Below the pieces are notes generated by a model. That model was not told the origin of the DNA. It saw nothing but the letters and a program-made list of their open reading frames with translations, and ran no database searches. A program made the translations under genes and the position numbers. A stretch of DNA of 64,000 nucleotides from an uncultured Actinomycetes bacterium. Its GTDB lineage: Bacteria; Actinomycetota; Thermoleophilia; UBA2241. Below are positions 5,513 through 42,308 of this stretch, piece by piece. The DNA is taken from positions 1-64,000 of the forward strand of contig CAVWIH010000031.1 of the NCBI GenBank assembly GCA_963755025.1. Direction: 5' to 3'. The first letter of the stretch is position 1; each line of letters starts with the position of its first letter.

Positions 5513-5601
5513 TGGTGTCGGAAGGGGGACTTGAACCCCCATGAGGTAATGCCCTCACTAGGCCCTCAACCTAGCGCGTCTACCAATTCCGCCATTCCGA
5601 C
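5513..5601 (-). tRNA. tRNA-Leu(GAG)
   Basis: GTCGGAATGGCGGAATTGGTAGACGCGCTAGGTTGAGGGCCTAG...GGTTCAAGTCC...TTCCGACACCA. Long variable arm, encoded CCA. Confidence 0.97.
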
Positions 5602-27949: not shown

Positions 27950-30900
27950 TTACGCCCGCGCCGGGGCGCCCGACAGCTGGTCGGCGGCCACCGCGGCGGT
28001 CGGGGCGTCGTCGCCGTGCTGGGACCACCAGCGCAGGAAGCCCTTGCTGTCGAGGTAGGCCTCGCAGCGGGTCATGGCGCCGGCGTCGTTCTGGTGCTCG
28101 TCGAACTGCAGCGTGAGGAAGGGCTTGCCCGAGGCGGCGCCCACGTAGTGCTTGATGTACGAGTCGGGACCGCACTTGAAGTTGGTGAGGTAGATGATGT
28201 GCAGGCGCTCGTGCTGTCCCACGAACTTGCCGGCCTGCAGGATCTTGCGGCCGTAGTTCCAGTACATGTTGGGCACCACGTCGCCCACCTCGATGCCCTT
28301 CAGCGCCGAGGAAGTCCATGGGGATCACGTTGACGCCGTAGAACGAGCGCAGCTTGCGCGGGATATCCATGTTCACGCCCTTGTCGTACATGTTGTACGG
28401 GCGTCCGATGATGACGATGCCGAGCTCGCCCGACGCTTCGAGGTCGGCCAGGGCCTTGCGCCCGGCCGCGGCCAAGCCCTCGCGGAACACCTCTTGCGCG
28501 GCGTTGGCGGCGGCCACGGCGTCGTGCAGCGCAGCCTGGCTCGCCCCGCAGCGACTCGGCCAGCGGCCGCAAGTCGCGTTCGAGCTGCGCCATGTCGAGC
28601 CGAAAGCGCACCCGCGGCGTGAGCAGCCGGTCGCGGTAGCGCTCGAGGCGCGGCGCCGTGCGAATGACGAAGGGCAGCGTCTGCCCCCAGGGGCAGGCGT
28701 GCGAGTTGACCTCGGGAAACTCGGTCTCCTCGTTCAGCACGTTGGGCAAGAAGACGTAGTCGGCGCCCTCGGCGAACAGCGCCTCGACGTGCCCGTGCGC
28801 GACCCTGATGGGGAAACAGGGCTCGGCCACGGTCATGTCGACGCCGTTCTCGCGGATGCCCTTGTCGGTCTCGCGCGACAGCATGGGCCGCGCGCCGAGG
28901 TGGGCGAAGAAGGTGGCCCAGAAGGGCAGGCGGTCGAAGGTGTACATGGTGCGCGGGATGCCCACGGTGACGGCGGCGTCGGCGCTGCGCTGCGCCGCCT
29001 CTTCGAAGGGCGCCAGCAGCAGGCGCTCGCGCAGGGCGACGAGGTCGTCGATGACCGGCTCCTTGTCGACCTTGGCGCGCTTGCGGTAGCGGTCGGAGCA
29101 CTTGTCGCCCCAGTAGGTCTTCTCGCCTTCGATGGTGAACTGGCGGATGTCGCACTCGTTGGAGCAGTGCTTGCAGACGAAATCCTTGACCGTGTAGTCG
29201 ACCGCCGAGAGGTCCCAGCCGCGGAAGGTCGTGACCTCGCCGGTGCGACCCATGCGCTCGCGGGCGAGCAGCGCCATGCCGATGGCGCCCATGACGCCGT
29301 TGTGCGGCGGCACGATGATCTCCTTACCGAGGATCTGGGCGAAGGCGGCGGCCACGGCGTCGTTGTAGGCGGTGCCGCCCTGGAAGAAGATGCAGTCGCC
29401 GATCTTGCGCTCGCGCACCAGGCGGTTCAGGTAGTTGTAGGCGATCGAGTAGGCGAGTCCGGCGACGAGGTCTTTGCGCTCCGCGCCGCGCGACTGGTAG
29501 CTCATCACGTCGCGTTCCATGAACACGGTGCAGCGCTCGCCCAGGCGGATCGGCGCGGTCGACTGCAAGGCAAGCTCGGCGAACTCGCCGACGATCTCGA
29601 TGCCGAGCTTCTCGGCCTGCTCTTCGAGGAACGAGCCGGTGCCCGCCGCGCAGGCTTCGTTCATGGCGAAGTCGACGACGATGCCGTCCTGCATGGAGAT
29701 GAACTTGGAGTCCTGGCCGCCGATCTCGAAGATGGTGTCGACCTGGCGCGCGATGCTGCGGCTGATGAAGTCGGCGCCGGTCTTGTGGGCGGTGATCTCG
29801 TCGGTGATGAGGTCGGCGCCGCAGAGCTCGCCGACGAGCTCGCGGCCCGAACCGGTGGTGCCCACGCCGAGCACGCGGATGCGGTCGCCGATCTCGTCGC
29901 GGATCTCGGCTAAGCCGGCGTCGACGACCTCGACCGGCCGCGCCTGCGTCTTGGTGTAGATCGCCTTGACCACCTCGCCGGCCTGGTCGAGCACGACCAG
30001 GTTGGTCGACACGGAGCCGATGTCGATGCCCAGAAAGACGTCGACGACGGCGCCGTCGGCCGGAAACTCGTAAGGCCGCGCCAGGTCGCGCAGCAGCAGG
30101 ACCCGCTCGGTCGACAGCGGCTCGGCCGTGGGGAACACGGCGGCCGGCAGGCGCGCGGGGTCGAGCGCGACACCGCCGGCGCGGGCGGTCTCGGGGGCGC
30201 TGGCGGCGGCGTCGGCTTCGATCAGCCCGGCGCCGACCGCGCCCATCCAGGCGTAGAGGTCGGGGACGAAGAGCTGGTCGTCGGTCAGGCCGAAGGCGTC
30301 GCGCACGGCTTGCACCGCGCCCTCGTTGGCGGCCACGCCGCCGATGAAGGCCACGGGCGCCTCGACGAGCTTGCCCTTGGTGATCGTGCCCTTGTAGTTG
30401 CGGATGACGGCGTCGCACAGGCCTTTAAGGACCTCGGGCGGCTGGTAGCCCTTCTGCTGGGCGTGGATCATGTCGGACTTGGCGAACACGCTGCAGCGCC
30501 CGGCGATGTTGGCCGCGCGGCCCGCCGCGGCGACGATGCCGCCCACGTCTTCGATCTCATAGAGCAGGCGGCTGGCCTGCTGGTCCATGAACGAACCGGT
30601 GCCCGCCGCGCAGTCGCCGTTGGTCTGGTAGTCGGCGATGCCGGTGCGGCCCGTGGTGCCGTCGGTGTCGAGGCGCAGGAACTTGGAGGTCTCGCCACCC
30701 ATCTCGAAGACCGTGACGACGTCGGGGTGCAGCCCCGTGAGGCCGCGGGCGATGGCCTTGAACTCGTTCTCGTACGTGGCGCCGAGCGCCTGGCTGATGA
30801 GACGTCCGCCCGAGCCGGTCACGCGCACGCCGGTCACGGCGGCCGCGGGCACGACGGCGAAGAGCTCGTCGAGGAGGTTGCGGGTGGCTTCGCTCGGGCT

Positions 30901-31089
30901 GCCCTTGATGCGCTGATAGCGCGTGGCCAGCACGAGGCGCTCGCCGGCCGGCGCGGGGCCGGTCGCGGGCTCGTGGAAGAGCGCGGGGGCCTGGGCAACG
31001 GCGCGTTCCAGGAGGTCGCGTTCGAGCGGCTCGCCGATGAGCGCGGCCTTAAGGCTGATGCAGCCGATGTCTATGCCAAGAAACGCCAT
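27950..31089 (-). CDS. CoA-substrate-specific enzyme activase with tandem activase domains + DUF2229-like domain (PlsA/Ger type; frameshifts ~28550 and ~28305)
   Basis: GIDIG...CAAGTGSF...CSVFAKSD and GIDIGS...CAAGTGSF...CTVF, VGIPR, CFPIRVAHGH, GRPYN, NFKCGPDS, DEH..DAG..TRCEAY. Confidence 0.85.
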
Positions 31090-31281
31090 ATCGGAGTGTG
31101 GTCGGACCTCCCGCGGGACTCGTATGAAAGCCCAGTGTAGGGTAGCGGGCGAAGCTGCTCATCGCAAGCATCCGCCCGCCGAGTGGAATGAAGACTAACT
31201 TCATCCCCATTGCGGGTCAACTGTTCCTGCTTCGCCGCGCGAGCCAGAGCGGCCGCGGCGGGGCGGCGCCCCGCAGTCGCC

Positions 31282-32803: not shown

Positions 32804-35476
32804 CTAGGTCACTTTAACGGTCAGCTCGGCCGCCACCGTCTGACGGTTGCCCGCCAGGTCGACCGCCAGCAGCGTCACGAGGTAGGTGCCCCGCGCTTTA
32901 GGCTTGAACGACCAGCTGCGCACCACGCCGATCGTCGCCGCCGGCAGCGTCGCCGACGACACGACCGTACCCGCCGACGAGCGCGCCACGATCGTCGCCG
33001 ACGCCCTCGGGCTAAGCTTGTCGCTGACCCGGTAGGCCGCGTGCAGCGTCCTGCCGAGTTTGAGGGACACGGTGCCCGCGTGCCAGGCGGCGACCGGCGG
33101 CACGGTATCGACGTGCAGGCTCATGACAGAGGCGACCGTGCCGACCGCGTTCTTGGCCGACAGCGTGCACACATACGAGCCGTCGGCGACTACGACGCCA
33201 CCGGCGTCTTTGCCGTCCCACCGCCAGGTGTGCGCGCCGCCGGCCAGGCTGCCGAGCGCCACGCGTCGCACCACGGCCCCGCCGGGGCCGGTCAGCGCCA
33301 CGCTGACCGTGGCGGTGCGCGTCTGACGAAACGAGAGCACGGTCGGTGTCGTTCACGCCGTCGCCGTTGGGCGACACCCAGACGGGCACGAAGTGCGGCG
33401 TTGACCGAGCGTGTCGTCGACCCAACGGCGCGCTTCGCGGTCGCCGTGTTGCCCGCCGCGTCGGTCGCGCGCACCACGAGGTCGTACGACGCCGTCGGGC
33501 GCGACCGCAAGCGCGCCGCGCCGAGCTCACCTTGCCGTCCCAGACCAGATGCAGCTTGCCGGCCTTGGTGGCCGTCGGGCCGACCGTGCGCACCAGCGCG
33601 CCGCTCGCGTCGCGCACGCTCAGGGTGGCCGTGCACGGCCTCGCCCGCCGTCAGCGCGATCTGCGCGGCGTCGGCGAAGCGATCGCCGTTCGGGCTGATC
33701 ACGGCGGGCGTCGACGGCTGAGCCCCGAGATGACCGGAGGCGACTGTGTCGATGCGCACCGCGACGCTCGCCGGCCGCGCCGTGCCGTTCGCGCTGGTGG
33801 CCGCGAAGGTCGCCGTGTAGGCGCCGTCGGGCAGGCGCGCGCCGGCGGCGTCGCGGCCGTGCCACACCGCGCTCGCCGTCGTGCCGGTGCCGGCGAAGCG
33901 GGCGACCACGCTGCCCGCCGCGTCGCTCAGGGCGATGCTCCAGCCGTCGTCGCCCGACAGCCGGCCTTGAAGGCGACGCTGTCGCGCACGCCGTCGCCGT
34001 TGGGGCTGAAGGCGCGCGGCGAGGCGCGTCGGGGTGTAGATCTTGGGATCGCCGATGCCGGCCACGGCCGTGCGGATGGCGGGCAGCATGCCGAACAGCA
34101 CGTTGCCGGGGCACTCGGTGTAGTTGACCTGACGATGGCCCAGGATGACCGGCACCGTGACCCACTGCCCCGCCTTGTACATCTCGGTCGTGAGAGCACT
34201 CGACGCGCGCCGTGCCCTGCGGGTCGAGGTGCGAGAGGTCGAGCTTCCAGGCCAGGAGGCGCTCGAGTGAGGTCACCGCCGCCTTCGAGGGCGCGACCGT
34301 CTGAAAGGTGCCGATCAGCGAGACGCCGGTGCTCATGCTGTTGAAGCCCAGCACCTGGGCGCCGATCACGGCGCTGGCGACGCCGCCGTAGCGGCCTTCG
34401 TAGATCGTCCCGAAGCGGTCGATCAGGAAGTTGTAGCCGATGTCGTTCCAGCCGTTGACCTGGGTGTGGTAGTAGTAGATGCCGCGCACGAGCGCCGGCG
34501 CCTGGGCGCGCGTGTAGTTGTTGGCGTTGACGGTGTGATGGACAAAGGCACAGCGCACCACGCCGTACGAGGGCGAGTTCGAGCGCAGCGACTCGTCGGC
34601 GCCCCACTTGGCGCGCGACACGATCGGCGGTTCGGGCGGTCCGCCCACGGTGGTGGCCCCCACGACCGCCGCGCCGGCGGCGTCGGGAGCAGCCGGCTCC
34701 GTCGTCGTAGACCCGGACGTCGTCGTCGCGACCGCAGGCGCCATCGTCGGGGCGACGGACGCCGCCGGCGATGCCGCAACGGTCGGCGCCGTCGAGGCCG
34801 TGACCTGCGCGTCGATGCAGGCAAGGCGCACATCGCTCACCGGCGCGCCGCCGGCCTCGTATTGCACGTAGCGCGCGGCGCCGACCCAGACCGGCTCGGT
34901 CACCAGGTCGGCGGCGCCTTCGACGCTGCCCGCCGGACCGCTCTGGGCGTCCGCCTTCACCGTGAACCACGGCGTCCAGGAGAGCCCGTCGAGGCTGGTC
35001 CGCACGTGGAACTGAGCGGCGAGCACGCCGGCGCTCGTGGAGCGGAACAGGACGCCGATCATGTCGAACCGGGCTCCGGCGTCGACCGTGGTGGCCGCGC
35101 GTCCGTCGGGTCCGATGCCCGCCGGCAGCACCTGTGCGCGCCGTCCGCCCAGCGTGAGGGGCGCGGCCCCGTCGGTGCGGCCGAGGGGCGCCGCGCGCAG
35201 CGCCGTGCCGGCCGACGCCGCCGCGCCCGGCGAGGGCGCGGCCACGATGAACCCGGTGGTCACGGGCGTGGCCGATGGCGTGGTCGGGGCCGCGGCCAGG
35301 GCCGTCGCGGCGCAGGGGCCGAGCGCGCCTATGAGCAGCGCGGCGCCGCCCGCAAGGACGGCGGCGGCCGCTGCGCGCATGGGCAGCCGGCGTGGGCCAC
35401 GCGCCGCGGCAGCGCCAGAACAGAAGAGAGTCGAGAAGGATGAGAAACGACCGAGACGGCACGGTGGTAGGTTCAT
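32804..35476 (-). CDS. Secreted N-acetylmuramoyl-L-alanine amidase (Amidase_2) with FlgD-Ig-like repeats (several frameshifts)
   Basis: SRAKWGADE, VHHTV, GWNDIGYNFLIDRFGTIYEGR, GHRQVNYTECPG, repeated SPNGDG and WDGK motifs. Confidence 0.8.
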
Positions 35477-35642
35477 TGGCACTCCCTGGAGGCTCGTGCG
35501 GTCATCGTCGTCACAACCGCCGGCAACCTTTACGGGTCGGCCTTACCCCGGCGGCGGCCGCGTGGGCGCGCCCCCCTGTCCCTTTCACCCTAGTGCGCAA
35601 CGGCGCTCAGGCGCAACGGCGGGAGCGCCCGGCGCGGTGAGA

Positions 35643-35732: not shown

Positions 35733-37094
35733 TCATTCTTCGGCGTCGGCCTTGGCCTGGGTCATGCACGACCAGACGGGCTGGTAGACGCGATCGACCT
35801 CGTCGGCGTAGTCGTCGAGGTCGGCGCGCAGCTGCGTGATGAGCGTCTCGGCGCCGACGTGCGTGGGGTGCGCGCCGGTCTGCTCGATGATCTCGCGTGA
35901 GTGATGCGGGTTGTCGATCAGCATGCACGGCATGAGGAGGTTGTGGTTGAAGGGCTGCCGGCGGCGGATCTCCTGGAAGAAGGCCGACGAGAACGCCTCT
36001 TTGAGCGAGACGTCGTGCACGTTGTCGGTGGCGAAGTGCGTGAAGATGCAGGGCTCGACCCAGCCCTCGTTGTTGATGTGGATGTAGTGCTTGCCGGCGA
36101 TGCAGCCTTTGACGTACGGCGCGTCGCCCCAGAAGTCGACCGGGAACAGAGCCTTGCTGTTGCGCACGCGCTCGATGCCCAGGCGGAACTCGTTGCGCTC
36201 GGCGGGCGTGAGCATGAGGCTCATGTCGGGGTCGACGCCGACCGGCATGTAGAGGAAGTTCCAGCAGATCATGGCGCCTTTTTCGACCATGGCGTCGACG
36301 AACTCGTCGCTCACCAGGGTCTGCCAGTTGTGGCGCGTGACCGTGGCCGAGTAGCCGAACACCATGCCGCGTTCGCGCAGGCCGTCCATGCTCTTCATGA
36401 TCTGGTCGAAGATGCCCGGGCCGCGCCGCGCGTCGGTGTGCTCGCGGCCGCCTTCGATGCTCAGCATGGGGGCGACGTTGCCGAGGGCGGCGAGGCGGTC
36501 GAGGGTCGCCTCGTCGAGCAGGGTGCCGTTCGTGTAGACGTGGAAGTAGACGTCGGGGTTGGCGGCGTAGAAGTCGAGCAGGTCCTCGCGGAAGAACGGT
36601 TCGCCGCCGAGGATGGTGATGAGGTACACGCCCATCTCGTTGGCTTGGTCGACGATGCGCTGCAGGGTGGCGATGTCCATATCGCTGTCGCGCGAGTACT
36701 CGCCGGCAAAGCAGCCTTCGCAGGTGAGGTTGCAGCGCATCGTGGGGCTGATGAGGATCGTGAAGGGGGTCGGCACGCCTTCGCGCTGGGTGAACTCGGT
36801 GCGTTTCGCCGAGCCGCGCAGCATGGTGTTGATCACGAAGCACTCGATGAAGCGGTCGCGCGCGCGAGGACTCAGCTGGCCCACGACGTGCTTGGCGATG
36901 TTCAGCGCCGGGTGATCGTCGATGATCTTGTCGCGGACGAACAGGATCTCGGCTTTGTGGTTGTCGGGGGTGAGCTTCTCCGCCAGATTGAAGGCCTTGA
37001 CGATCTTGGCCTTGTCGTCGGTGGTGGCAAGCTTGAGAATCTGGTTGATGGTCCGCCGCTGCACCGCAGTGTACAGACCTTCGGTCGTGCTCAT
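35733..37094 (-). CDS. Radical SAM protein with SPASM/Twitch-type C-terminus
   Basis: CNLTCEGC, GGEP, YTNGT, SIEG, GCIAGKHYIHINNEGWVEPC, PCMLIDNP. SD GGGAGGG. Confidence 0.92.
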   Translation of the reverse strand: MSTTEGLYTAVQRRTINQILKLATTDDKAKIVKAFNLAEKLTPDNHKAEILFVRDKIIDDHPALNIAKHVVGQLSPRARDRFIECFVINTMLRGSAKRTEFTQREGVPTPFTILISPTMRCNLTCEGCFAGEYSRDSDMDIATLQRIVDQANEMGVYLITILGGEPFFREDLLDFYAANPDVYFHVYTNGTLLDEATLDRLAALGNVAPMLSIEGGREHTDARRGPGIFDQIMKSMDGLRERGMVFGYSATVTRHNWQTLVSDEFVDAMVEKGAMICWNFLYMPVGVDPDMSLMLTPAERNEFRLGIERVRNSKALFPVDFWGDAPYVKGCIAGKHYIHINNEGWVEPCIFTHFATDNVHDVSLKEAFSSAFFQEIRRRQPFNHNLLMPCMLIDNPHHSREIIEQTGAHPTHVGAETLITQLRADLDDYADEVDRVYQPVWSCMTQAKADAEE

Positions 37095-37256: not shown

Positions 37257-37283
37257 TTCAGGAAGCATTCGACCTGTCGATAG
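37257..37283 (+). promoter_or_regulatory. Sigma28 (FliA/WhiG)-like promoter
   Basis: TTCA-N15-GTCGATAG versus consensus TAAA-N15-GCCGATAA. The predicted start falls at the riboswitch 5' end. Confidence 0.45.
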
Positions 37284-37286
37284 TGC

Positions 37287-37376
37287 TACTTGACAAGGGC
37301 AAACCTGCCGCGAGGCAGGGACGCAAAGCCAGAGGTCTTGAGGTGATCAAGATAGCTCGGTTGCCGAGATCGAGAG
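37287..37376 (+). ncRNA. c-di-GMP-I (GEMM) riboswitch
   Basis: AAGGGCAAACC-TGCC-GCGA-GGCA-GGGACGCAAAGCC...GATAGCTCGGTTGCCGA. P1 CTTGA/TCGAG, GNRA tetraloop, and G at the position equivalent to G20. Confidence 0.93.
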
Positions 37377-37405
37377 CCCAGAGTTCTCGCGGTACCCTCC
37401 TCTCC

Positions 37406-37499
37406 CCGCCTCCGTCTCGCGCGTCCGCCCTCGTCGCCGGCATCAGACCTGACGGTCCGGACAGTCGGCGAGCCGGTCGTCAGTGCGCAACGGAGGCGG
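37406..37499 (+). promoter_or_regulatory. Anti-SD/SD expression platform
   Basis: CCGCCTCCGT (37406-37415) is the exact reverse complement of ACGGAGGCGG (37490-37499), which contains the SD. Confidence 0.7.
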
Positions 37500-37503
37500 T
37501 GCG

Positions 37504-39099
37504 ATGAAAGCCAGATTCCTCGTGATGGGAGCAGCGCTGCTGCTTGCCATCGTCCTCGTTTGGGGGGGGACCGCATGGGCCGACCAGGCCGCGCCTGTCG
37601 ACCCGAGCGTCGTCACCGAGCTCGCTGCCGGCGGCAGCGTGCCGGTCATCGTCTACGCGACGCCCGGCCACCTCAGCGACCTGACGGCCGAGTTCGACCC
37701 CACGACCATCGACGACTCCCTTTCGCTGATCGGCGCGCTGTCCACCGACGTGACGTCGGATACCATCGACGACGTCGCCGCCCTCCCGTACGTCGACTAC
37801 ATCGCCGCCGACGTCCCCACCTTCGGGACCGACTACGCCGCCAGCCTCGACGCGACCAACGCGACGATCGGCTTGGGCAACATCACCTCGCCGATCGCCG
37901 GCGGCCTTGACGGCTCCGGCGTCGGCGTCGCGGTTCTCGACAGCGGCACCGCCGACGTGAACGACCTCGACGGCGCCAACGGCCAGACGCGCGTCTCGGC
38001 CTTCGTCGACTTCGTCAACGGCCGGCGTCGCATGTACGACGATGGCGGTCACGGCACGTTCGTCGACGGCATCATCGCCGGCAACGGCTCGAGCTCGCTG
38101 CCGACCGACCAGGGCGGCAAGGCCACGACCCAGTATCGCGGCGTGGCCCCCAACGCCAACATCATCTCGCTCAAGGTCCTCGACAGCCACGGCGAGGGCC
38201 GTGCGTCGGCCATGATCGCCGCCATCGCCTGGGCGATCAACCATCGCCAGCAGTACAACATCCGCGTCATGAACATCTCGGTCGAAGGCGACGTGACCAC
38301 ACCGGCCGCGTACGACCCGCTCGATCGCGCGGTCGACGCCGCCTGGCGGGCCGGCATCGTCGTGGTGTGCGCCGCCGGTAACGAAGGCGCCTTCGGCGAG
38401 GGCGGCGTGTTGTCGCCCGGCAACGATCCCTACGCCATCACGGTCGGCGCCTCCGACTCGCAGCAGACCGCCGACACGAGCGACGACACCGTCTGCACGT
38501 ACAGCTCGGTCGGTCCGACCCTCTTCGACGAGTACGCTAAGCCCGACCTGGTCGCCCCCGGCAACCACATCATCTCGCTGCGCGCCCCGGGCAGCTGGAT
38601 CGACGACACCTACCCGCAGACGCGTGTGGCGGTCTCGACCTACCAGCCCGGGGCCTCGAACCGCGCGACCCCGTCGTACGCGGTCATGTCGGGCACCAGC
38701 GCGGCGGCCCCCGTCGTCGCCGGCGCCGCGGCCCTCATGATTCAGAACGACGCCACGCTGACCCCCGGCGAAGTGAAGCTGCGCCTCATGGACAGCGCCC
38801 ACCAGCTGGCCGGCGCCGCCCCCTACTCTGAAGGCGCCGGCGAGCTCGACGTCGCAGCCGCGCTCAACGACGACTCGGTCACCAGCGGCTACGACCTCTC
38901 GGCCAAGCTCGGCAACGGCAGCACGATCCTGCCGATCGACGTACTGCTGCAGTGGCAGAAGTACGCCTGGTCGAAGTACGCTTGGTCGAAGTACGCGTGG
39001 TCGAAGTACGCGTGGTCGAAGTACGCCTGGTCCAAATACGCGTGGTCTAAATACGCATGGTCAAAATACGCATGGTCGGTCGTGATCGACGGGCAGTGA
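37504..39099 (+). CDS. Secreted S8 (subtilisin-like) peptidase with C-terminal (KYAWS)8 tail
   Basis: Sec signal ending AWA, prodomain, triad VAVLDSG / HGTFVDG / SGTSAAAP, oxyanion AAGNEG. Confidence 0.95.
   Translation: MKARFLVMGAALLLAIVLVWGGTAWADQAAPVDPSVVTELAAGGSVPVIVYATPGHLSDLTAEFDPTTIDDSLSLIGALSTDVTSDTIDDVAALPYVDYIAADVPTFGTDYAASLDATNATIGLGNITSPIAGGLDGSGVGVAVLDSGTADVNDLDGANGQTRVSAFVDFVNGRRRMYDDGGHGTFVDGIIAGNGSSSLPTDQGGKATTQYRGVAPNANIISLKVLDSHGEGRASAMIAAIAWAINHRQQYNIRVMNISVEGDVTTPAAYDPLDRAVDAAWRAGIVVVCAAGNEGAFGEGGVLSPGNDPYAITVGASDSQQTADTSDDTVCTYSSVGPTLFDEYAKPDLVAPGNHIISLRAPGSWIDDTYPQTRVAVSTYQPGASNRATPSYAVMSGTSAAAPVVAGAAALMIQNDATLTPGEVKLRLMDSAHQLAGAAPYSEGAGELDVAAALNDDSVTSGYDLSAKLGNGSTILPIDVLLQWQKYAWSKYAWSKYAWSKYAWSKYAWSKYAWSKYAWSKYAWSVVIDGQ
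38959..39078 (+). repeat. 15-nt coding repeat x8 encoding KYAWS
   Basis: AAR TAC GCN TGG TCN x8, with only synonymous differences. Confidence 0.98.
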
Positions 39100-40670
39100 C
39101 CCAGACCGAGACACACCCTGGCAGGCCAACGACGGCCGCGCGACCTCGCGCGGCCGTCGCGCTCTATGTAGTCCTCACCCTGATCGCCGCCGCCGTCTGC
39201 GCGCTCGTCGCCTACGGCATGCCGCACGGCACGCCCCGCGAGCTGCAGCTGAGCGGCCTGATCGCCTTCATCGCGCTCTCCACGGTCACCGACCTGCGCG
39301 AGGTGCGCCTGCCGGTGATCGGCCACGTGACGCTCTCGTTCGTGCCGGTGCTGGCCGCCCTCATCGTCTTCGGCCTCTGGCCGGCGATCGTGGTCGCCGC
39401 GGCGTCTGGTGTGGCCACCGTGGCCGTGACCCGCGACCCGCAGAAGATCGCCTTCAACGTCGGCGACTACGTCGTGTCGACCTTCATTGCGGGCCTCGTC
39501 TACCAGGCGTTCGTGCCCGCCCACGCGGCGTTCGTGCAGACCGTGCTGCCCGCCTTCGCCGCCACCGGCGCCGACTTCGTCATCAACACGGTGGTGCTCG
39601 CCGGCGTCATCGCCCTGGCGAGCGGCGCCACGCCCTGGCGGGTGTGGCGCGAGAACTACCAGTGGGGCCTGCCCAGCTACATGACCGGCGCCACCCTGAG
39701 CCTGCTGCTGGCGTTCCTGTACCTGTGGCTCGGCGTGCCCGGCCTCGTGCTCGGCGTGCCCCCGCTGTTCCTCGTCTGGTACTCCTACGACGTCTACGCC
39801 GGCCGCATGCGCGACCGCGCCACGTTCTCCACCGAAGTGGCCTCGTTTCGCGACGAGCTCGCCTCGGCCGTGCGCTCACAGGACGAGCTGCGCGACGCCC
39901 AGCGGCGCGTGGCCGCCGAGATCGAGAAGGCGCGCGGTATCCAGGCCGACCTGCTGCCGCGCAAGGCTCCCGAGGTGGCGGGTCTCGAGCTCGCCCACCG
40001 CATCGAGTTCATGACCGAGATGGGCGGCGACTACTTCGACTTCGTGCCGCTGGCCGACGGCCGCCTCGGCCTGGTCTGCGGCGACGTCATGGGCAAAGGC
40101 CTGTCGGCGGCGCTCATCATGACCATGGCGCGCAGCCTGATCCTCTCGGCGGCGCGCAACGGCCACCGCCCCTCCGAGGTGCTCTGCGAGGTCAACGACG
40201 CCCTCACCCGCGACCTCGCCGGGCAGTCGGCGCCCTCGTTCCTGACGCTCGCCTACGCCATCTACTCGCCCGCAGACCGTAAGCTCGTCGTGGCCAACGG
40301 CGGCCACAACCCGCTGCTCGTCTTCGGTTCGGCCGGCCTGCGGGAGTTTCCCTCGCGCGGCAGCATGCTGGGGGTGCGCGACGGCCTCGAGTTTCCCGAA
40401 GACTCGCTTGTGCTCGAGCCCGACGACACCTTCGCGCTCTTCACCGACGGCCTCACCGAGGCGCGCGACCCGAGCCGCGGCCTCTTCGGCACCGCGCGCC
40501 TGGTCGAGGCGCTGTCGAGCTCCCCGCAGGCGTCGGCCGGCACCGCCCTCGAGGCGGCCTGGCAGGCCGTGACCGACTTCCGCGCCGGCACACCGGCCAC
40601 CGACGACGCCACGCTGCTGCTCGGTCGCGTCGTGGCCATCGAGGAACGCCCGGAACGGCCGATACAGTGA
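39096..40670 (+). CDS. Multi-TM sensor fused to PP2C/SpoIIE (RsbU-like) phosphatase
   Basis: About 7 TM segments, a coiled coil, GGDYFDF, GDVMGKG, NGGHNP, FTDGLTEA, DDAT. GTGA overlap with the peptidase stop. Confidence 0.92.
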   Translation: MTQTETHPGRPTTAARPRAAVALYVVLTLIAAAVCALVAYGMPHGTPRELQLSGLIAFIALSTVTDLREVRLPVIGHVTLSFVPVLAALIVFGLWPAIVVAAASGVATVAVTRDPQKIAFNVGDYVVSTFIAGLVYQAFVPAHAAFVQTVLPAFAATGADFVINTVVLAGVIALASGATPWRVWRENYQWGLPSYMTGATLSLLLAFLYLWLGVPGLVLGVPPLFLVWYSYDVYAGRMRDRATFSTEVASFRDELASAVRSQDELRDAQRRVAAEIEKARGIQADLLPRKAPEVAGLELAHRIEFMTEMGGDYFDFVPLADGRLGLVCGDVMGKGLSAALIMTMARSLILSAARNGHRPSEVLCEVNDALTRDLAGQSAPSFLTLAYAIYSPADRKLVVANGGHNPLLVFGSAGLREFPSRGSMLGVRDGLEFPEDSLVLEPDDTFALFTDGLTEARDPSRGLFGTARLVEALSSSPQASAGTALEAAWQAVTDFRAGTPATDDATLLLGRVVAIEERPERPIQ

Positions 40671-41450
40671 GTGATATGGGCACGCCCCCGACCAAAGAGA
40701 ACCCCGCCACGCTGCAGGTCATGCGCTACGACGCCCAGCGCGGCACCCTGACGGTCATCGTCGGCGACCCCGCGGGGGTGCCTCGCGAGATCGTCGCCCA
40801 GCGCGCCGCCGAGGCCATGCGCGCCCGCAGCTTCATCTGCCACACCTCCGACGACGACGAGTTCCTCGGCGCCGACGAGATCTGTTTCATCCCGCGCGCC
40901 GACCGCTGCGAGATCGTCAGCATCCACACCAACGGCTGGCGCCGTCACCACGGCGACCACCGCCGCAGCCTCGTCGAGATCCTCAACGACCTGGCCGCCG
41001 CCGTGGCGCGCGGCAACCTGTCGTTCTTAGACGACGACGAGCTCGTGGCCATCTCCAGCGAGGGCCGCGAGATCTTCGCCTGCACGGTCAACGACTCCGC
41101 CTCGCTCGCCCAGGCGCGCGCCGGGGTGGCGCGGGTCTTAGACGACCAGCAGGTGGCCCCCGACGCCCGCCGGCGCCTCGAGCTCTGCGTCTCCGAAGCG
41201 GCCACCAACATGCTCGTGCACGGCGGGGGCGGCGGCACCATGAAACTGCTGCTCGTGGGCGACCACCTGCGCGCCGTCGTCGCCGACCACGGCCCGGGCT
41301 TGAGCTTTCTCAACTGGACCGAAGAGGCCGGCGGCCTGAACCAGCCTTCCATGGGGTACGGATACAAGATCATTCTTGATAACCTTGAGCGTGTGTACCT
41401 GCACACCGGCGACGAGGGCAACGACACTCGTCCTCGACCGGACCATCTAG
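40667..41450 (+). CDS. RsbW-like anti-sigma/Ser kinase (HATPase_c) with unknown N-terminal domain (frameshift ~41420)
   Basis: SEAATNMLVHG, ADHGPG, SMGYG. Removing one A gives GTTLVLDRTI-stop. GTGA overlap with the upstream gene. Confidence 0.8.
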
Positions 41451-41467
41451 GCGAAGGGACGCAAGCG

Positions 41468-41783
41468 ATGCTGCACACGCGTGTCGAGGCCGGCGAGATC
41501 CCCATCGTGTACCTCGAGGGCGAGATCGACCTCGACTCGGTCGAGACGTTCCGCTGGGTGATGAGCGACGCCATGCGCGACGTGTCCGAAGCCATCGTCG
41601 ACTTCGGCAAGGTCACCTTCATCGACTCGTCGGGCACCGGGCTGCTCGTGCGCTTCTGCCTCGACTACAAAGCCCAGGGCGTGCAACTGCGGCTGCGCAA
41701 CATCCCGCCCGTGGTCGACGACGTCTTCAGCATGCTCAAGGTGCGCACCCTGGTGGGCGACGAAGCCTTCCTCGACCGGCTGA
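41468..41783 (+). CDS. RsbV-like STAS anti-anti-sigma factor (3' end uncertain)
   Basis: [20 protein letters not shown] (phospho-Ser motif). SD GAAGGGA. The nearest TGA (41781) is out of frame. Confidence 0.85.
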
Positions 41784-41784
41784 G

Positions 41785-42308
41785 CTGCGGAGGCCGGAAG
41801 CGTCGCCTCGCCGGGCCGCCAGTCGACCGGGCACAGCTCGCCGGTCTGCAGCGCCTGCAGCACGCGCAGGGTCTCTTCGGTGTTGCGCCCCACGTTGTTG
41901 TCGTGCACGACCATGTAGCGCAGCATGCCTTCGGTGTCGATGATGAAGGTGCCGCGCAGCGTGTGGCCTTCGTCGGCCAGCAGCACGCCGTACTCGCGCG
42001 CAACGTCGCGGGTCATGTCCGACAGCAGCGGGAACCCCAGCTTGCCGAGCTCGTGCTCGCACCAGGCGAGGTGGCTGTACTTGCTGTCGACGCTGGCGCC
42101 GAACACCCTGGCGCCGAGCTCGTCGAACTCGCGCGCGGCGCTGGGCGAAGCCGCGGATCTCGGTCGGGCACACGAACGTGAAGTCGAGCGGATAGAAGAA
42201 CAGCACCACCCAGCTGCCACGCTGCGACGCGAGGTTCACCTCGACGAACTCGCCGTCGAGCACGCCGTCGAGGGTGAAATCGGGTGCGCGTTGTCCAACC
42301 TGGATCAT
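41785..42308 (-). CDS. ahpC: 2-Cys peroxiredoxin (frameshift ~42135; 3' end uncertain)
   Basis: [42 protein letters not shown]. Confidence 0.88.

Follow-up and report, generated by a model that had tools for sequence, protein, structure and literature searches.

A riboswitch-preceded operon joining a repeat-tailed subtilase to a MASE9-like membrane phosphatase and an RsbW/RsbV-like pair

Partner-switching modules such as RsbU/RsbV/RsbW and SpoIIE/SpoIIAA/SpoIIAB act on a cognate sigma factor, which is usually encoded in the same operon. SpoIVB acts on SpoIVFA/SpoIVFB in Bacillus sporulation, and the secreted protease ZmpI/PPEP-1 of Clostridioides difficile is under the control of a c-di-GMP riboswitch. 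At P1 and P4, subtilases prefer large hydrophobic side chains. Enzymes of the S8 family process tandem-copy precursors, as in the case of yeast alpha-factor (Kex2) and the cyanobactins (PatA/PatG). For MASE9, the accessible part of the source describes a membrane domain of eight transmembrane (TM) segments with short loops and no known ligand, for which intramembrane binding was inferred and which is found with HD-GYP, HD-GYP-GAF-GGDEF and GGDEF-EAL output partners (bioRxiv 10.1101/2021.11.05.467447).

The locus described here lies in a window of 64,000 nucleotides, the whole stretch of DNA analysed, from an uncultured Actinomycetes bacterium. It places a tail-bearing S8 protease next to a MASE9 protein, a pairing of which no published description was found in the literature searched. 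The features of the locus are as follows, with the method in brackets.

35733-37094, minus strand: radical SAM/SPASM gene, its product extended N-terminally by ~100 aa (Pfam)
37289-37369, plus strand: c-di-GMP-I clan aptamer (CL00126), best model c-di-GMP-I-GGC (Rfam RF03167)
37406-37499, plus strand: candidate expression platform, CCGCCUCCG (37406-37414) pairable with CGGAGGCGG (37491-37499) (MFE fold)
37504-39099, plus strand: putative pre-pro subtilase (S8), 531 aa from ATG 37504 (Pfam; catalytic residues; AF2)
38959-39078, plus strand: eight in-frame KYAWS units of 15 nt each (TRF; translation)
39096-40670, plus strand: MASE9 (~8 TM, residues 17-231) plus PP2C/SpoIIE (residues 321-512) phosphatase (Pfam; hydropathy)
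40667-41450, plus strand: RsbW-like HATPase_c_2 protein with an N-terminal region of ~140 aa outside any family (Pfam)
41468-41783, plus strand: RsbV-like STAS protein with FIDSSGTG motif (Pfam)

Anatomy and conservation of the operon

A c-di-GMP-I riboswitch had been placed ahead of the operon by the initial annotation, and an aptamer of this clan is indeed found there, with the GGC variant as the best-matching model (71.3 bits in the window against a gathering score of 59). The aptamer precedes the S8 gene in 19 of 20 related loci searched with Rfam, one of these as RF01051, and in 33 of 40 searched with our own model; it also lies 5' of tail-bearing S8 genes in five of seven Armatimonadota loci and one Acidobacteriota locus. 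Elsewhere in the source genome the aptamer model matches at two places only, both 5' of pilin-like genes. Downstream of the aptamer, CGGAGGCGG spans the S8 gene's Shine-Dalgarno sequence and is paired with CCGCCUCCG in the MFE fold; in a crude scan of 34 leaders, 20 have a stretch of at least 6 nt complementary to the Shine-Dalgarno region. This sequestering helix is a candidate for the expression platform of the leader. Both the ligand of the riboswitch and the direction of its regulation we infer.

The S8 frame is open from GTG 37483 (37483-39099), with ATG 37504 behind GGAGG as the likely start. The protein matches Peptidase_S8 (PF00082) at 153.4 bits against a threshold of 21.8 and reaches no NCBIfam subfamily, with mycosin at 137 against 278.75; its closest solved relatives are 9ues and 3afg (E ~1e-38). 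The intact D/H/S triad noted in the initial annotation is borne out by alignments of 14 and 91 sequences, in which D153, H190 and S406 (ORF numbering) are invariant together with the oxyanion residue N300. A putative signal peptide (~37504-37581, N-terminus MKARF...TAWA/DQ, read by eye) is followed in the AF2 model by a beta-alpha-beta module at residues 53-109 that resembles an I9 propeptide and by a catalytic domain with pLDDT mostly 80-98; Inhibitor_I9 matches, all below threshold, occur only in S8 homologues. The gene is single-copy and, at E<=1e-60, present in 64 of 79 genomes of the source family and in none of 321 genomes from other families of the class.

The stop codon of the S8 gene overlaps the GTG start of the second gene at 39096-39099 (GTGA), as does that of the second gene with the GTG of the kinase gene at 40667-40670, both as annotated before. 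The second protein combines a marginal match to MASE9 (PF20972, 25.8-25.9 bits against 24.3, and 28.9 bits in the genome search) with a strong one to SpoIIE (PF07228, 160.6 bits). MASE9 had been a guess of the initial annotation for the membrane domain, and a correct one, the match lying above the cut-off; the PP2C/SpoIIE domain also stood, while the count of about seven TM segments did not, as hydropathy gives about eight hydrophobic segments (17-44, 50-67, two in 72-113, 126-140, 149-181 and two in 194-231) before the phosphatase. Across 34 sequences the PP2C motifs GGDY.D, CGDVMGKG, TDG.TE and DDATLL are kept, and D312, D315, D330, D451, D503 and D504 are invariant and presumably form the metal-binding acidic motifs. 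The source genome holds four MASE9 genes, only one of which adjoins an S8 gene; MASE9 in general does therefore not depend on the protease.

Next come the RsbW-like kinase (HATPase_c_2, 41.5 bits, residues 142-255 of the fused frame), whose N-terminal region of ~140 aa has no PDB relative by sequence, and the STAS protein (49.8 bits, residues 275-360 of the same frame). The assembly carries the two in a single 504-codon frame (40667-42181) without an intervening stop, and this fusion is due to an extra A at 41420/41421, which shifts the kinase's native stop codon (TAG, 41448-41450) out of frame. The extra A is absent from all 39 aligned relatives, in which kinase and STAS are separate adjacent genes (39/39), and from the contigs of three DNA runs (X1, X2 and X3). 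Both domains of the earlier RsbW-then-RsbV reading are thus present, the separation into two genes being lost in the assembly through this base. The TGA at 41781-41783, earlier taken as the end of STAS, is one base out of frame, leaving the assembly's STAS without an in-frame stop; the contigs from the DNA runs do not extend over this codon. The STAS proteins of relatives end in FLDG or FLDR directly before the stop after 101-109 residues; that of locus L125 has 93 residues, its frame running to the end of the contig.

In genomes of the same family, S8 is followed on the same strand by MASE9-PP2C at 40 of 40 loci and then by kinase and STAS at 39, the fortieth being ended by the contig end, and the S8/PP2C stop-start overlap (RTGA) persists in 27 or more of 35 relatives; these genomes represent one bacterial family and are not independent samples. 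Neither an exporter or processing gene conserved alongside nor a sigma factor gene was seen in this conserved block. A SigB/F/G-type gene is found on another contig of the source genome (296.5 bits).

The tryptophan-repeat tail and its MASE9-like neighbours

The S8 protein ends in (KYAWS)8, as previously annotated. LLQWQ stands before the array (TRF period 15, 8.1 copies), and after it come the cap VVIDGQ (39079-39096) and the stop codon. All eight units are identical as peptides and differ only by synonymous changes, with seven distinct DNA versions among the eight and a mean synonymous divergence of 2.0 per 15 nt. A C-terminal tail of the form (K[YF]xW[ST])n is found in 113 of the best 120 homologues, and in all 113 exactly seven residues, the cap, follow the last Trp; the copy number is eight in 23 of 31 close homologues. 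Between orthologues the units change together within each protein (KYAWS, KYGWS, RYSWS, KFRWT, KFKWS), while arrays of other genera follow an ordered higher-order pattern of two basic units and then one xVxWT unit. By these comparisons, selection acts on the tail, which is a trait of the family.

The fold of the tail is less clear-cut. AF2 gives residues 488-538 a pLDDT below 35 and predicts no confident fold with either eight or ~24 units (pLDDT <45 in both), and the window's tail has no match among the Pfam repeat families. These include the pentapeptide repeats (PF00805/PF13599), and no right-handed quadrilateral beta-helix appears in the AF2 model. One long pentapeptide tail (P0101) matches Pentapeptide_4 at a sub-threshold 27 bits against 38, and one S8 homologue (L068) carries in the same position a true hexapeptide left-handed beta-helix (Hexapep, 69.7 bits). 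The constancy of eight copies and the seven-residue cap are no less compatible with a tail of set length than with a precursor. Instead of releasing peptides, the tail may equally remain attached, as tether, anchor or solenoid.

Tails of this kind extend beyond the family. Of the 80 best-matching S8 loci from other genomes, 57 have a Trp-periodic tail of pentamers or hexamers; tails of this kind are carried by relatives in Acidobacteriota, Chloroflexota and Armatimonadota. The units are basic, acidic or neutral depending on phylum, and those of other phyla lack Lys; some distant homologues have a conserved xIVWG core with spacers of variable length, and in Vicinamibacterales homologues variable spacers separate the motifs. 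A MASE9-like ORF lies within 1.5 kb of S8 in 44 of these 80 loci, a count made with an HMM built in part from the matches it recounts. This ORF is placed 3' of S8 in the same orientation or 5' of it in divergent orientation. Such neighbours are found in Actinomycetota (3/3), Chloroflexota (3/4) and Acidobacteriota (38/62). They are absent from the other 36 loci, including all seven of Armatimonadota, and the protease must therefore also function independently of MASE9. No such neighbour occurs at any of the three Bacillota S8 loci that lack a Trp tail. The Pfam MASE9 model matches only 13 of 32 of the TM proteins at E<=1e-3.

The outputs attached to these membrane domains vary. Among the 31 neighbours that tblastn returned, HD_5/HD is present in 22, GAF in 17-18, GGDEF in six and HisKA/HATPase/REC in one, with HHExWDGxGYP in the alignment consensus; nine are ~210-250 aa long, too short for an output domain. 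The initial annotation had asked whether a repeat-tailed S8 consistently adjoins this TM family with variable outputs; this linkage holds, in 40 of 40 related loci and in 44 of 80 distant ones. The pairing across phyla suggests a hitherto undescribed route by which outside signals could enter the cell. Adjacency as such could also reflect co-regulation within a c-di-GMP regulon and not interaction.

Possible roles of the protease and its tail

The reading preferred here, to which we give a probability of about one half, is that of a riboswitch-gated sensory operon, with the exported protease serving MASE9 as an extracytoplasmic partner. The cyclic-dinucleotide aptamer would control, probably at the level of translation, a set of translationally coupled genes for a Sec-exported pre-pro subtilase with its tail, MASE9-PP2C, the RsbW-like kinase and the RsbV-like STAS protein. 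MASE9 itself is nearly devoid of exposed loops. The protease would supply the extracytoplasmic input, and the Trp-rich tail, expected to seek the membrane interface, would carry this input to MASE9. It would most likely do so as part of the intact protein, as a tether of fixed length or a docking element, and less likely in the form of clipped-off peptides. In response, MASE9 would set the activity of PP2C on the phosphorylated STAS protein and thereby switch the RsbW-like partner and a target encoded elsewhere. Coupling (physical or functional), tail role and downstream target alike we infer. A functional coupling of S8 and MASE9 seems probable; that the tail is the coupling element has slightly less than even odds, and the narrower proposal that it is a genetically encoded MASE9 ligand, tethered or self-clipped by the protease active site, is doubtful.

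The initial annotation had gone further: the subtilase would cut its own tail into many copies of one pentapeptide (such as SKYAW or AWSKY), which would diffuse and be sensed by MASE9 as an autocrine or quorum signal. Units that stay identical while their DNA drifts and vary together across orthologues would suit this proposal, as would the persistent S8-MASE9 linkage, the lack of a predicted tail fold and the xIVWG cores with variable spacers, which resemble a multi-core precursor more than a solenoid. On the other side, repeats were seen only fused to S8, a search for stand-alone repeat-peptide genes gave none (ten of its 12 short matches were inspected, of which seven are C-terminal S8 fragments, one is a short ORF with a degenerate tail and two are short low-complexity repeat ORFs), and the operon has no sigma factor. 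The preferred copy number, the invariant cap, the ordered arrays of other genera and the missing exporter or processing gene also speak against it, as does a unit chemistry that varies widely by phylum next to a MASE9-like partner that remains recognisably constant. Gene types of peptide quorum sensing (Agr/Com/Phr) are absent from the conserved block, a histidine-kinase output occurs on only the one neighbour mentioned above, and the gene arrangement departs from that of a multi-core RiPP, with no separate precursor gene, no conserved exporter and the radical SAM gene on the opposite strand. A release of peptides from the tail, and with it this autocrine circuit, is thus judged unlikely. It is also rather unlikely that no signalling link exists, i.e. 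that a c-di-GMP-controlled extracellular protease serves matrix, adhesin or pilus remodelling or nutrition, with a beta-solenoid or an envelope or matrix anchor as its tail and with MASE9 nearby through a shared surface-behaviour regulon. The Hexapep tail of L068, the Pentapeptide_4 match of P0101, a constant length with a terminal cap suited to a folded or measured tail, the pilin-like genes behind the genome's other aptamers and the Armatimonadota, which keep riboswitch and tail-bearing S8 without MASE9, are all in line with this; the same applies to the motifs, as S/T-K-F/Y-x-W fits the small-x-hydrophobic pattern and W-G-x-x-[AVI]-x the hexapeptide motif, which we take to be those of pentapeptide and hexapeptide repeats. 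On the other hand, AF2 shows no solenoid for either tail, the window's tail matches no repeat family and the irregular Vicinamibacterales spacers poorly suit a regular solenoid. The translational coupling of S8 to MASE9-PP2C is widely kept, and adjacency in 44 of 80 loci, in two orientations and three phyla, is tighter than usual for regulon membership. The nine TM-only neighbours have no c-di-GMP domain, so a shared c-di-GMP metabolism does not explain them.

A further proposal starts from the radical SAM gene (Radical_SAM 68.9 bits, SPASM 24.2 bits; no NCBIfam family reached), which lies divergently upstream of S8 in 35 of 40 related loci. Its product could modify the tail, making the protein a protease-fused RiPP-like precursor with, for example, Trp-Lys cross-links at each W-[ST]-K, of the darobactin type or as three-residue cyclophanes. 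Darobactin carries a W-S-K cross-link, W-S/T-K occurs at every unit junction, and anSME enzymes modify Sec substrates ahead of export; the product also resembles WgkB, the KxxxW cyclic-peptide maturase and DynA, though weakly and with scores well short of the thresholds. Nevertheless this is highly improbable: synteny inside one bacterial family is weak evidence, the gene sits beyond the riboswitch on the opposite strand with an amidase gene after it, its best NCBIfam matches are heme/mycofactocin-type enzymes, none near the cut-off, and the tails of other phyla offer no Lys. In addition, a tblastn search of 77 distant loci with the window's protein returned one weak partial match (L013, 34% over ~100 residues).

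Should the tail prove to be the ligand of MASE9, it would be the first input for an orphan MASE sensor, and the pairing would constitute a protease-coupled signalling module present in at least three phyla and connected to different outputs, namely HD-GYP breakdown of c-di-GMP, GGDEF synthesis, a histidine kinase or, as here, a PP2C partner switch behind a cyclic-dinucleotide riboswitch.

Comparison with described systems

Like the pentapeptide-repeat (Rfr) and hexapeptide (LbH) beta-helices, the tails have a period of five or six with small and hydrophobic residues at fixed positions, but Trp is invariant in every unit and the spacers are irregular in some homologues. With alpha-factor/Kex2 and PatE with PatA/PatG they share many identical short units and an S8 protease at hand, the difference being that here the protease carries the units in its own chain, that dibasic or recognition-sequence spacers are lacking and that no separate precursor gene was found. 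The c-di-GMP-I (GEMM-I) regulons of C. difficile place an aptamer of the same clan before a secreted protease and pilin genes, as the source genome does before the S8 protease and pilin-like genes; here the best-matching model is the GGC variant, and, unlike ZmpI/PPEP-1, the enzyme is not a metalloprotease but an S8 protease with a repeat tail, whose gene shares a transcript with those for a membrane sensor and a partner-switch pair.

The second protein resembles TM1467 of Thermotoga maritima and HdgA of Streptomyces venezuelae, MASE9 proteins with an 8-TM N-terminal sensor and an output domain, as far as the accessible description goes, although its match to MASE9 is marginal (25.8 bits). The HD-GYP and GGDEF outputs of the distant loci agree with the accessible part of that work, in which neither the PP2C output nor the neighbouring protease of the window's protein appears (bioRxiv 10.1101/2021.11.05.467447).

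The closest counterparts of the cytoplasmic half are RsbU/V/W and SpoIIE/AA/AB, which also combine PP2C, a HATPase_c_2 kinase and STAS, the last with a DSSG-type serine motif, in one operon, and in SpoIIE the PP2C domain also follows a multi-pass membrane domain. The operon differs in having no sigma factor gene, in the extra N-terminal region of its kinase, in its MASE9 membrane domain, in the exported protease as first, coupled gene and in the cyclic-dinucleotide riboswitch ahead of the whole unit. On the extracytoplasmic side, SpoIVB belongs to S55 and not S8, has no repeat tail and acts by cleavage of its target, while cleavage of MASE9 is not among the observations made here; what the two systems have in common is an exported serine protease genetically tied to a membrane-embedded signalling protein.

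The operon and its repeat-tailed subtilase

An exported subtilase that carries a C-terminal tail of Trp-periodic repeats is probably tied in function to a MASE9 membrane domain encoded beside it, a reading to which we give a probability of about 70% on the basis of sequence comparisons. In the window, the two genes belong to an operon led by a riboswitch, which begins with the following elements.

37289-37369, + strand: c-di-GMP-I-clan aptamer, best model the GGC variant RF03167 (Rfam 71.3 bits against a gathering score of 59)
37504-39099, + strand: S8 subtilase gene, with its ATG at 37504 about 130 nt past the aptamer and behind GGAGG (Peptidase_S8, 153.4 bits)
38959-39078, + strand: eight KYAWS units within this gene (TRF period 15, 8.1 copies)

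The initial annotation had recognised a c-di-GMP-I riboswitch ahead of the operon, an S8 protease with an intact triad and a (KYAWS)8 tail, and these assignments hold, with D153, H190 and S406 being invariant, together with N300, in alignments of 14 and 91 sequences. The reading frame is also open from a GTG at 37483; homologues begin at MKARF, and the N-terminus (MKARF...TAWA/DQ) was read by eye as a predicted Sec signal peptide. AlphaFold2 places a propeptide-like β-α-β module before a confidently modelled catalytic domain, and the protein's nearest relatives of known structure, by sequence, carry the label subtilisin-like serine protease (9ues and 3afg, both at E ~1e-38). The C-terminus reads LLQWQ-(KYAWS)8-VVIDGQ. 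One RNA-library contig of 400 nt matches 38021-38420 exactly, with carry-over DNA as a possible source.

Among the best 120 homologues examined in a search with the S8 protein, 113 close with (K[YF]xW[ST])n and then exactly seven more residues, the other seven proteins being truncated or frameshifted, and the penultimate residue is Gly in nearly all of the 113. The unit varies by lineage (KYAWS, KYGWS, RYSWS, KYAWT, KFAWT, KFRWT, KFKWS, KYRWT) and is uniform inside any one protein, with eight units present in 23 of the 31 proteins of the close group. DNA differences between the units in the window fall only on the third base of Lys, Ala and Ser codons, which gives seven versions of one peptide, and throughout the window's genus same-peptide units differ by 2.0-2.8 of 15 nt, the exception being one copy ended early by an in-frame stop with just two same-peptide units left. 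As the peptide stays the same while the DNA drifts, the uniformity of the units is kept by selection on the peptide and not by recent duplication. Other genera have ordered arrays in which a pair of basic units precedes one xVxWT unit, and synonymous differences there are fewer.

The stop codon of the subtilase gene shares GTGA (39096-39099) with the GTG start of a 524-residue protein, the stop of which in turn overlaps a GTG at 40667-40670, as had been described for both junctions. This second protein had been annotated with about seven transmembrane segments and a PP2C domain; the SpoIIE/PP2C domain is confirmed (160.6 bits, acidic motifs invariant among 34 sequences), while hydropathy gives about eight hydrophobic segments. 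Its MASE9 match is marginal, at 25.8 bits against a cut-off of 24.3. The next frame encodes about 140 residues without a family, an HATPase_c_2 domain (41.5 bits) and a STAS domain (49.8 bits). The N-terminal ~140 residues of the RsbW-like protein (40667-41090, + strand) matched no Pfam family and no PDB sequence, and the NCBIfam RsbA family covers only its residues 140-212.

RsbW-like and RsbV-like proteins had been described as separate. The domains are there, but the window's assembly encodes both in a single frame of 504 codons (40667-42181) that has a stop codon neither between them nor behind them, whereas 39 of 39 relatives have separate genes with 10-20 nt between the two, and a STAS protein of 101-109 residues (93 in the related locus L125, where the frame runs to the contig's end). 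In the DNA alignment the window has a surplus A at 41420/41421, which puts the native TAG at 41448-41450 out of frame. Since this base is found neither in the relatives nor in the contigs of three public DNA runs covering the stretch, we attribute the fusion to faulty assembly or to a strain-specific lesion and do not regard it as biological. The TGA at 41781-41783, previously given as the end of the STAS gene, is one base off its frame in the window; relatives end there in FLDG or FLDR followed by the stop. Two genes on the opposite strand are also disrupted.

41736-42308 and 41447-42220, - strand: convergent peroxiredoxin (AhpC/TSA), split over two frames and without an in-frame stop at the expected end
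32807-35482, - strand: cell-wall amidase (Amidase_2 + FlgD_ig/Big_13), spread across three reading frames

The frameshift in the peroxiredoxin gene is probably an assembly error; the contigs of two of the three DNA runs (X1 and X2) also omit a base at 42132 within it. The three frames of the amidase gene are another sign of indel errors or decay in the contig.

Conservation of the operon and of its riboswitch

The S8 gene is single-copy in the source genome (a MAG of 3.37 Mb, 84% complete). Of 79 genomes in its family, 64 carry it, with no match at E<=1e-60 in 321 genomes of the class's other families. Forty related loci were compared over about 8 kb either side of the gene. The MASE9-PP2C gene follows on the same strand in all 40, and the kinase and STAS genes come next in 39, the fortieth ending at a contig edge; of 35 intact cases, at least 27 keep the RTGA overlap of the S8 stop with the PP2C start. 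In one related locus, L134 (G335:C5), the kinase gene is set off from the PP2C gene by about 2.3 kb of additional DNA, which places the kinase match at +5461 as against ~+3200 elsewhere. Synteny ends downstream past the STAS gene in the related loci, and upstream it takes in, on the opposite strand, a radical SAM/SPASM gene (35 of 40 loci), the amidase gene and others. Further features on that strand are listed here, including a tRNA gene.

35733-37094, - strand: radical SAM/SPASM gene with an N-terminal extension of ~100 residues, divergent from the riboswitch and below every NCBIfam cut-off
28303-31158, - strand: large BcrAD_BadFG + DUF2229 gene (CoA-enzyme activase type), whose synteny with the S8 operon holds in 38 of the 40 related loci
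5516-5601, - strand: tRNA gene of 86 nt with a long extra arm (Rfam 54.8 bits)

The aptamer lies upstream of the S8 gene in 19 of 20 related loci by Rfam and in 33 of 40 by our own model, the training set of which included some of the same genomes later scored. Predicted pairing in the leader of the S8 gene allows a helix that would mask its Shine-Dalgarno sequence. In the aptamer alignment A8, the window's genus has AAGGGC at 37297-37299, just 5' of the conserved GCAAACC, as opposed to AAAGGC in most other genera, a difference at one aptamer position. The GGC riboswitch variant is not discussed in a 2017 paper in NAR. The source genome (G000) holds two further aptamers, at loci L160 and L161.

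G000:C15:29225-29306, - strand: c-di-GMP-I-GGC aptamer before a pilin-like gene with an N_methyl motif
G000:C32:50230-50311, + strand: c-di-GMP-I-GGC aptamer before a pilin-like gene with an N_methyl motif

As these precede pilin-like genes, the operon would belong to a surface-behaviour regulon. The C32 aptamer directly follows a sigma-70 family gene that scores 175 bits on the SigB/F/G model, below the cut-off.

Subtilase and MASE9 partners in other phyla

The distant set comprises the 80 loci closest to the S8 protein among the matches listed, with one genome scanned per species; three come from the same family, and most others from Acidobacteriota (62), Armatimonadota (7) and Chloroflexota (4). 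By a simple periodicity criterion, Trp-periodic tails occur in 57 of these 80 proteins, and several further ones have irregular motifs. Among the matches listed, the tails consist of hexamers such as SNAMWG, SSAIWG and TNIVWG or of acidic pentamers (ISWED, VAWDS), and in Vicinamibacterales of an xIVWG core with spacers of variable length. A cationic antimicrobial-peptide tail was considered and rejected on account of these acidic and neutral versions in other phyla.

When the window's second protein was used in tblastn, only its membrane part was matched, in a gene adjoining S8, directly downstream or divergently upstream, at 31 of the 77 non-family loci among the matches listed. The outputs of these 31 neighbours differ: Pfam finds HD_5/HD in 22 (the alignment consensus contains HHExWDGxGYP), GAF in 17-18, GGDEF in 6 and HisKA/HATPase/REC in 1, and nine are ~210-250 aa long, too short for any output domain. 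The Pfam MASE9 model itself matches 12 of the 31 (13 of 32 with the window's protein). An HMM built from the tblastn neighbours detects a MASE9-like ORF within 1.5 kb of S8 at 44 of the 80 loci among the matches listed (Actinomycetota 3/3, Chloroflexota 3/4, Acidobacteriota 38/62) and, by the same measure and among the same matches, at none of those from Armatimonadota (0/7), Bacillota (0/3) or Betaproteobacteria (0/1). The three Bacillota S8 genes lack a Trp tail. The initial annotation had suggested looking for repeat-tailed S8 proteases beside this membrane domain with variable outputs, and such pairs are thus found within the family and far outside it. At the 36 listed loci without MASE9, no other neighbour recurs (Pfam, 46 flanking ORFs).

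Among the matches listed, a c-di-GMP-I-clan aptamer precedes a tail-bearing S8 gene in five of seven Armatimonadota loci and in one Acidobacteriota locus. Two Armatimonadota loci have a pair of them, in tandem before the S8 gene in L016 (9439-9742), and in L067 (11630-11721) one before S8 and the other after it, ahead of the next gene. The protease is therefore tied to c-di-GMP in two ways, by an aptamer ahead of it or by a neighbour that makes or breaks c-di-GMP, and the window's family unites the aptamer with a MASE9 protein of PP2C output.

Role of the tail and relation to known systems

Ligand binding by MASE9 is inferred to take place inside the membrane in the accessible part of the paper that named the domain (bioRxiv 10.1101/2021.11.05.467447), where no ligand or partner is named. 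The MASE9 loops are very short, and a tail rich in Trp, Lys and Tyr would be expected to favour the membrane interface. Taken together, these properties make the tail the most plausible candidate for the element that couples S8 to MASE9, at slightly under even odds, and we lean towards a tail that acts while attached over one that acts after cleavage, its release being unlikely. By the established logic of partner-switch modules, a PP2C phosphatase dephosphorylates a STAS protein, and this protein then engages an RsbW-type kinase; the three proteins encoded here would act in the same way. No gene for a sigma factor lies with the operon in the related loci, and the genome has one SigB/F/G-type gene, on another contig.

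The initial annotation proposed that peptides are released from the tail as a quorum signal. The uniform peptide despite drifting DNA, the co-changing units across orthologues and the variable spacers of some lineages would favour such a precursor, or a linear-motif tail, while the hexapeptide β-helix of L068 and the conserved copy number and terminal cap would speak against a purely disordered or precursor tail. In L068 (9743-11998, Pyrinomonadaceae), a GDGVVL β-helix (Hexapep 69.7 bits) stands in the same position of the S8 homologue instead of Trp repeats, and the gene has no MASE9 neighbour. A Pentapeptide_4 match in P0101, an S8 homologue with ~24 units, was likewise counted against a purely disordered or precursor tail, although it is sub-threshold (27 bits vs 38). 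A search for short proteins with repeats returned mainly S8-gene fragments and no recurrent stand-alone precursor gene. We consider release as a quorum signal doubtful. Rather unlikely, too, is a reading in which S8 is a surface protease under c-di-GMP control, its tail being a solenoid or an anchor, and shares no more than a regulon with MASE9 proteins; the L068 helix would favour this reading, and the recurrent adjacency of the two genes disfavours it.

Structure prediction was applied to the tail as well. AlphaFold2 models residues 488-538 of the eight-unit protein below pLDDT 35 and residues 544-668 of P0101 at pLDDT 25-43, and the window's tail matches no repeat family in Pfam. An uncontrolled co-fold of tail residues 497-538 with the MASE9 domain (residues 1-245, aligned in 34 rows) scored 0.01 against a mark of 0.32 and carries no weight here, and matches of the tail in the ESM Atlas, all below 0.9, are leads at most. 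Cross-linking of the W-[ST]-K junctions of the tail by the neighbouring radical SAM enzyme is very improbable: the tie of that gene to S8 is synteny inside one bacterial family, and Lys is absent from the tails of other phyla. Coupling of the attached tail to MASE9 stays the preferred reading.

Membrane sensor domains of the MASE type occur commonly in the signalling proteins of bacteria, and to our knowledge few have a known input. A large, unannotated clade of Trp-tailed subtilases that adjoins MASE9-like genes in Actinomycetota, Acidobacteriota and Chloroflexota offers a concrete, testable candidate for that of MASE9, be it the protease, the tail or both. It also links two major regulatory currencies, as the partner makes or degrades c-di-GMP in some phyla and here a c-di-GMP-clan riboswitch would gate a module feeding a partner switch. 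Should the tail be an anchor, the clade would still be a widespread c-di-GMP-controlled surface protease of soil and peat bacteria, worth naming. Literature searches, with supplementary gene-context tables outside their scope, returned nothing on these repeats, this subtilase clade or a protease-MASE9 pairing. The component families are known, while the pairing, the tail and their combination with riboswitch and partner switch are undescribed as far as these searches reach; a tail that serves as a ligand, whether tethered or released, would represent a new principle by which bacteria take in signals.
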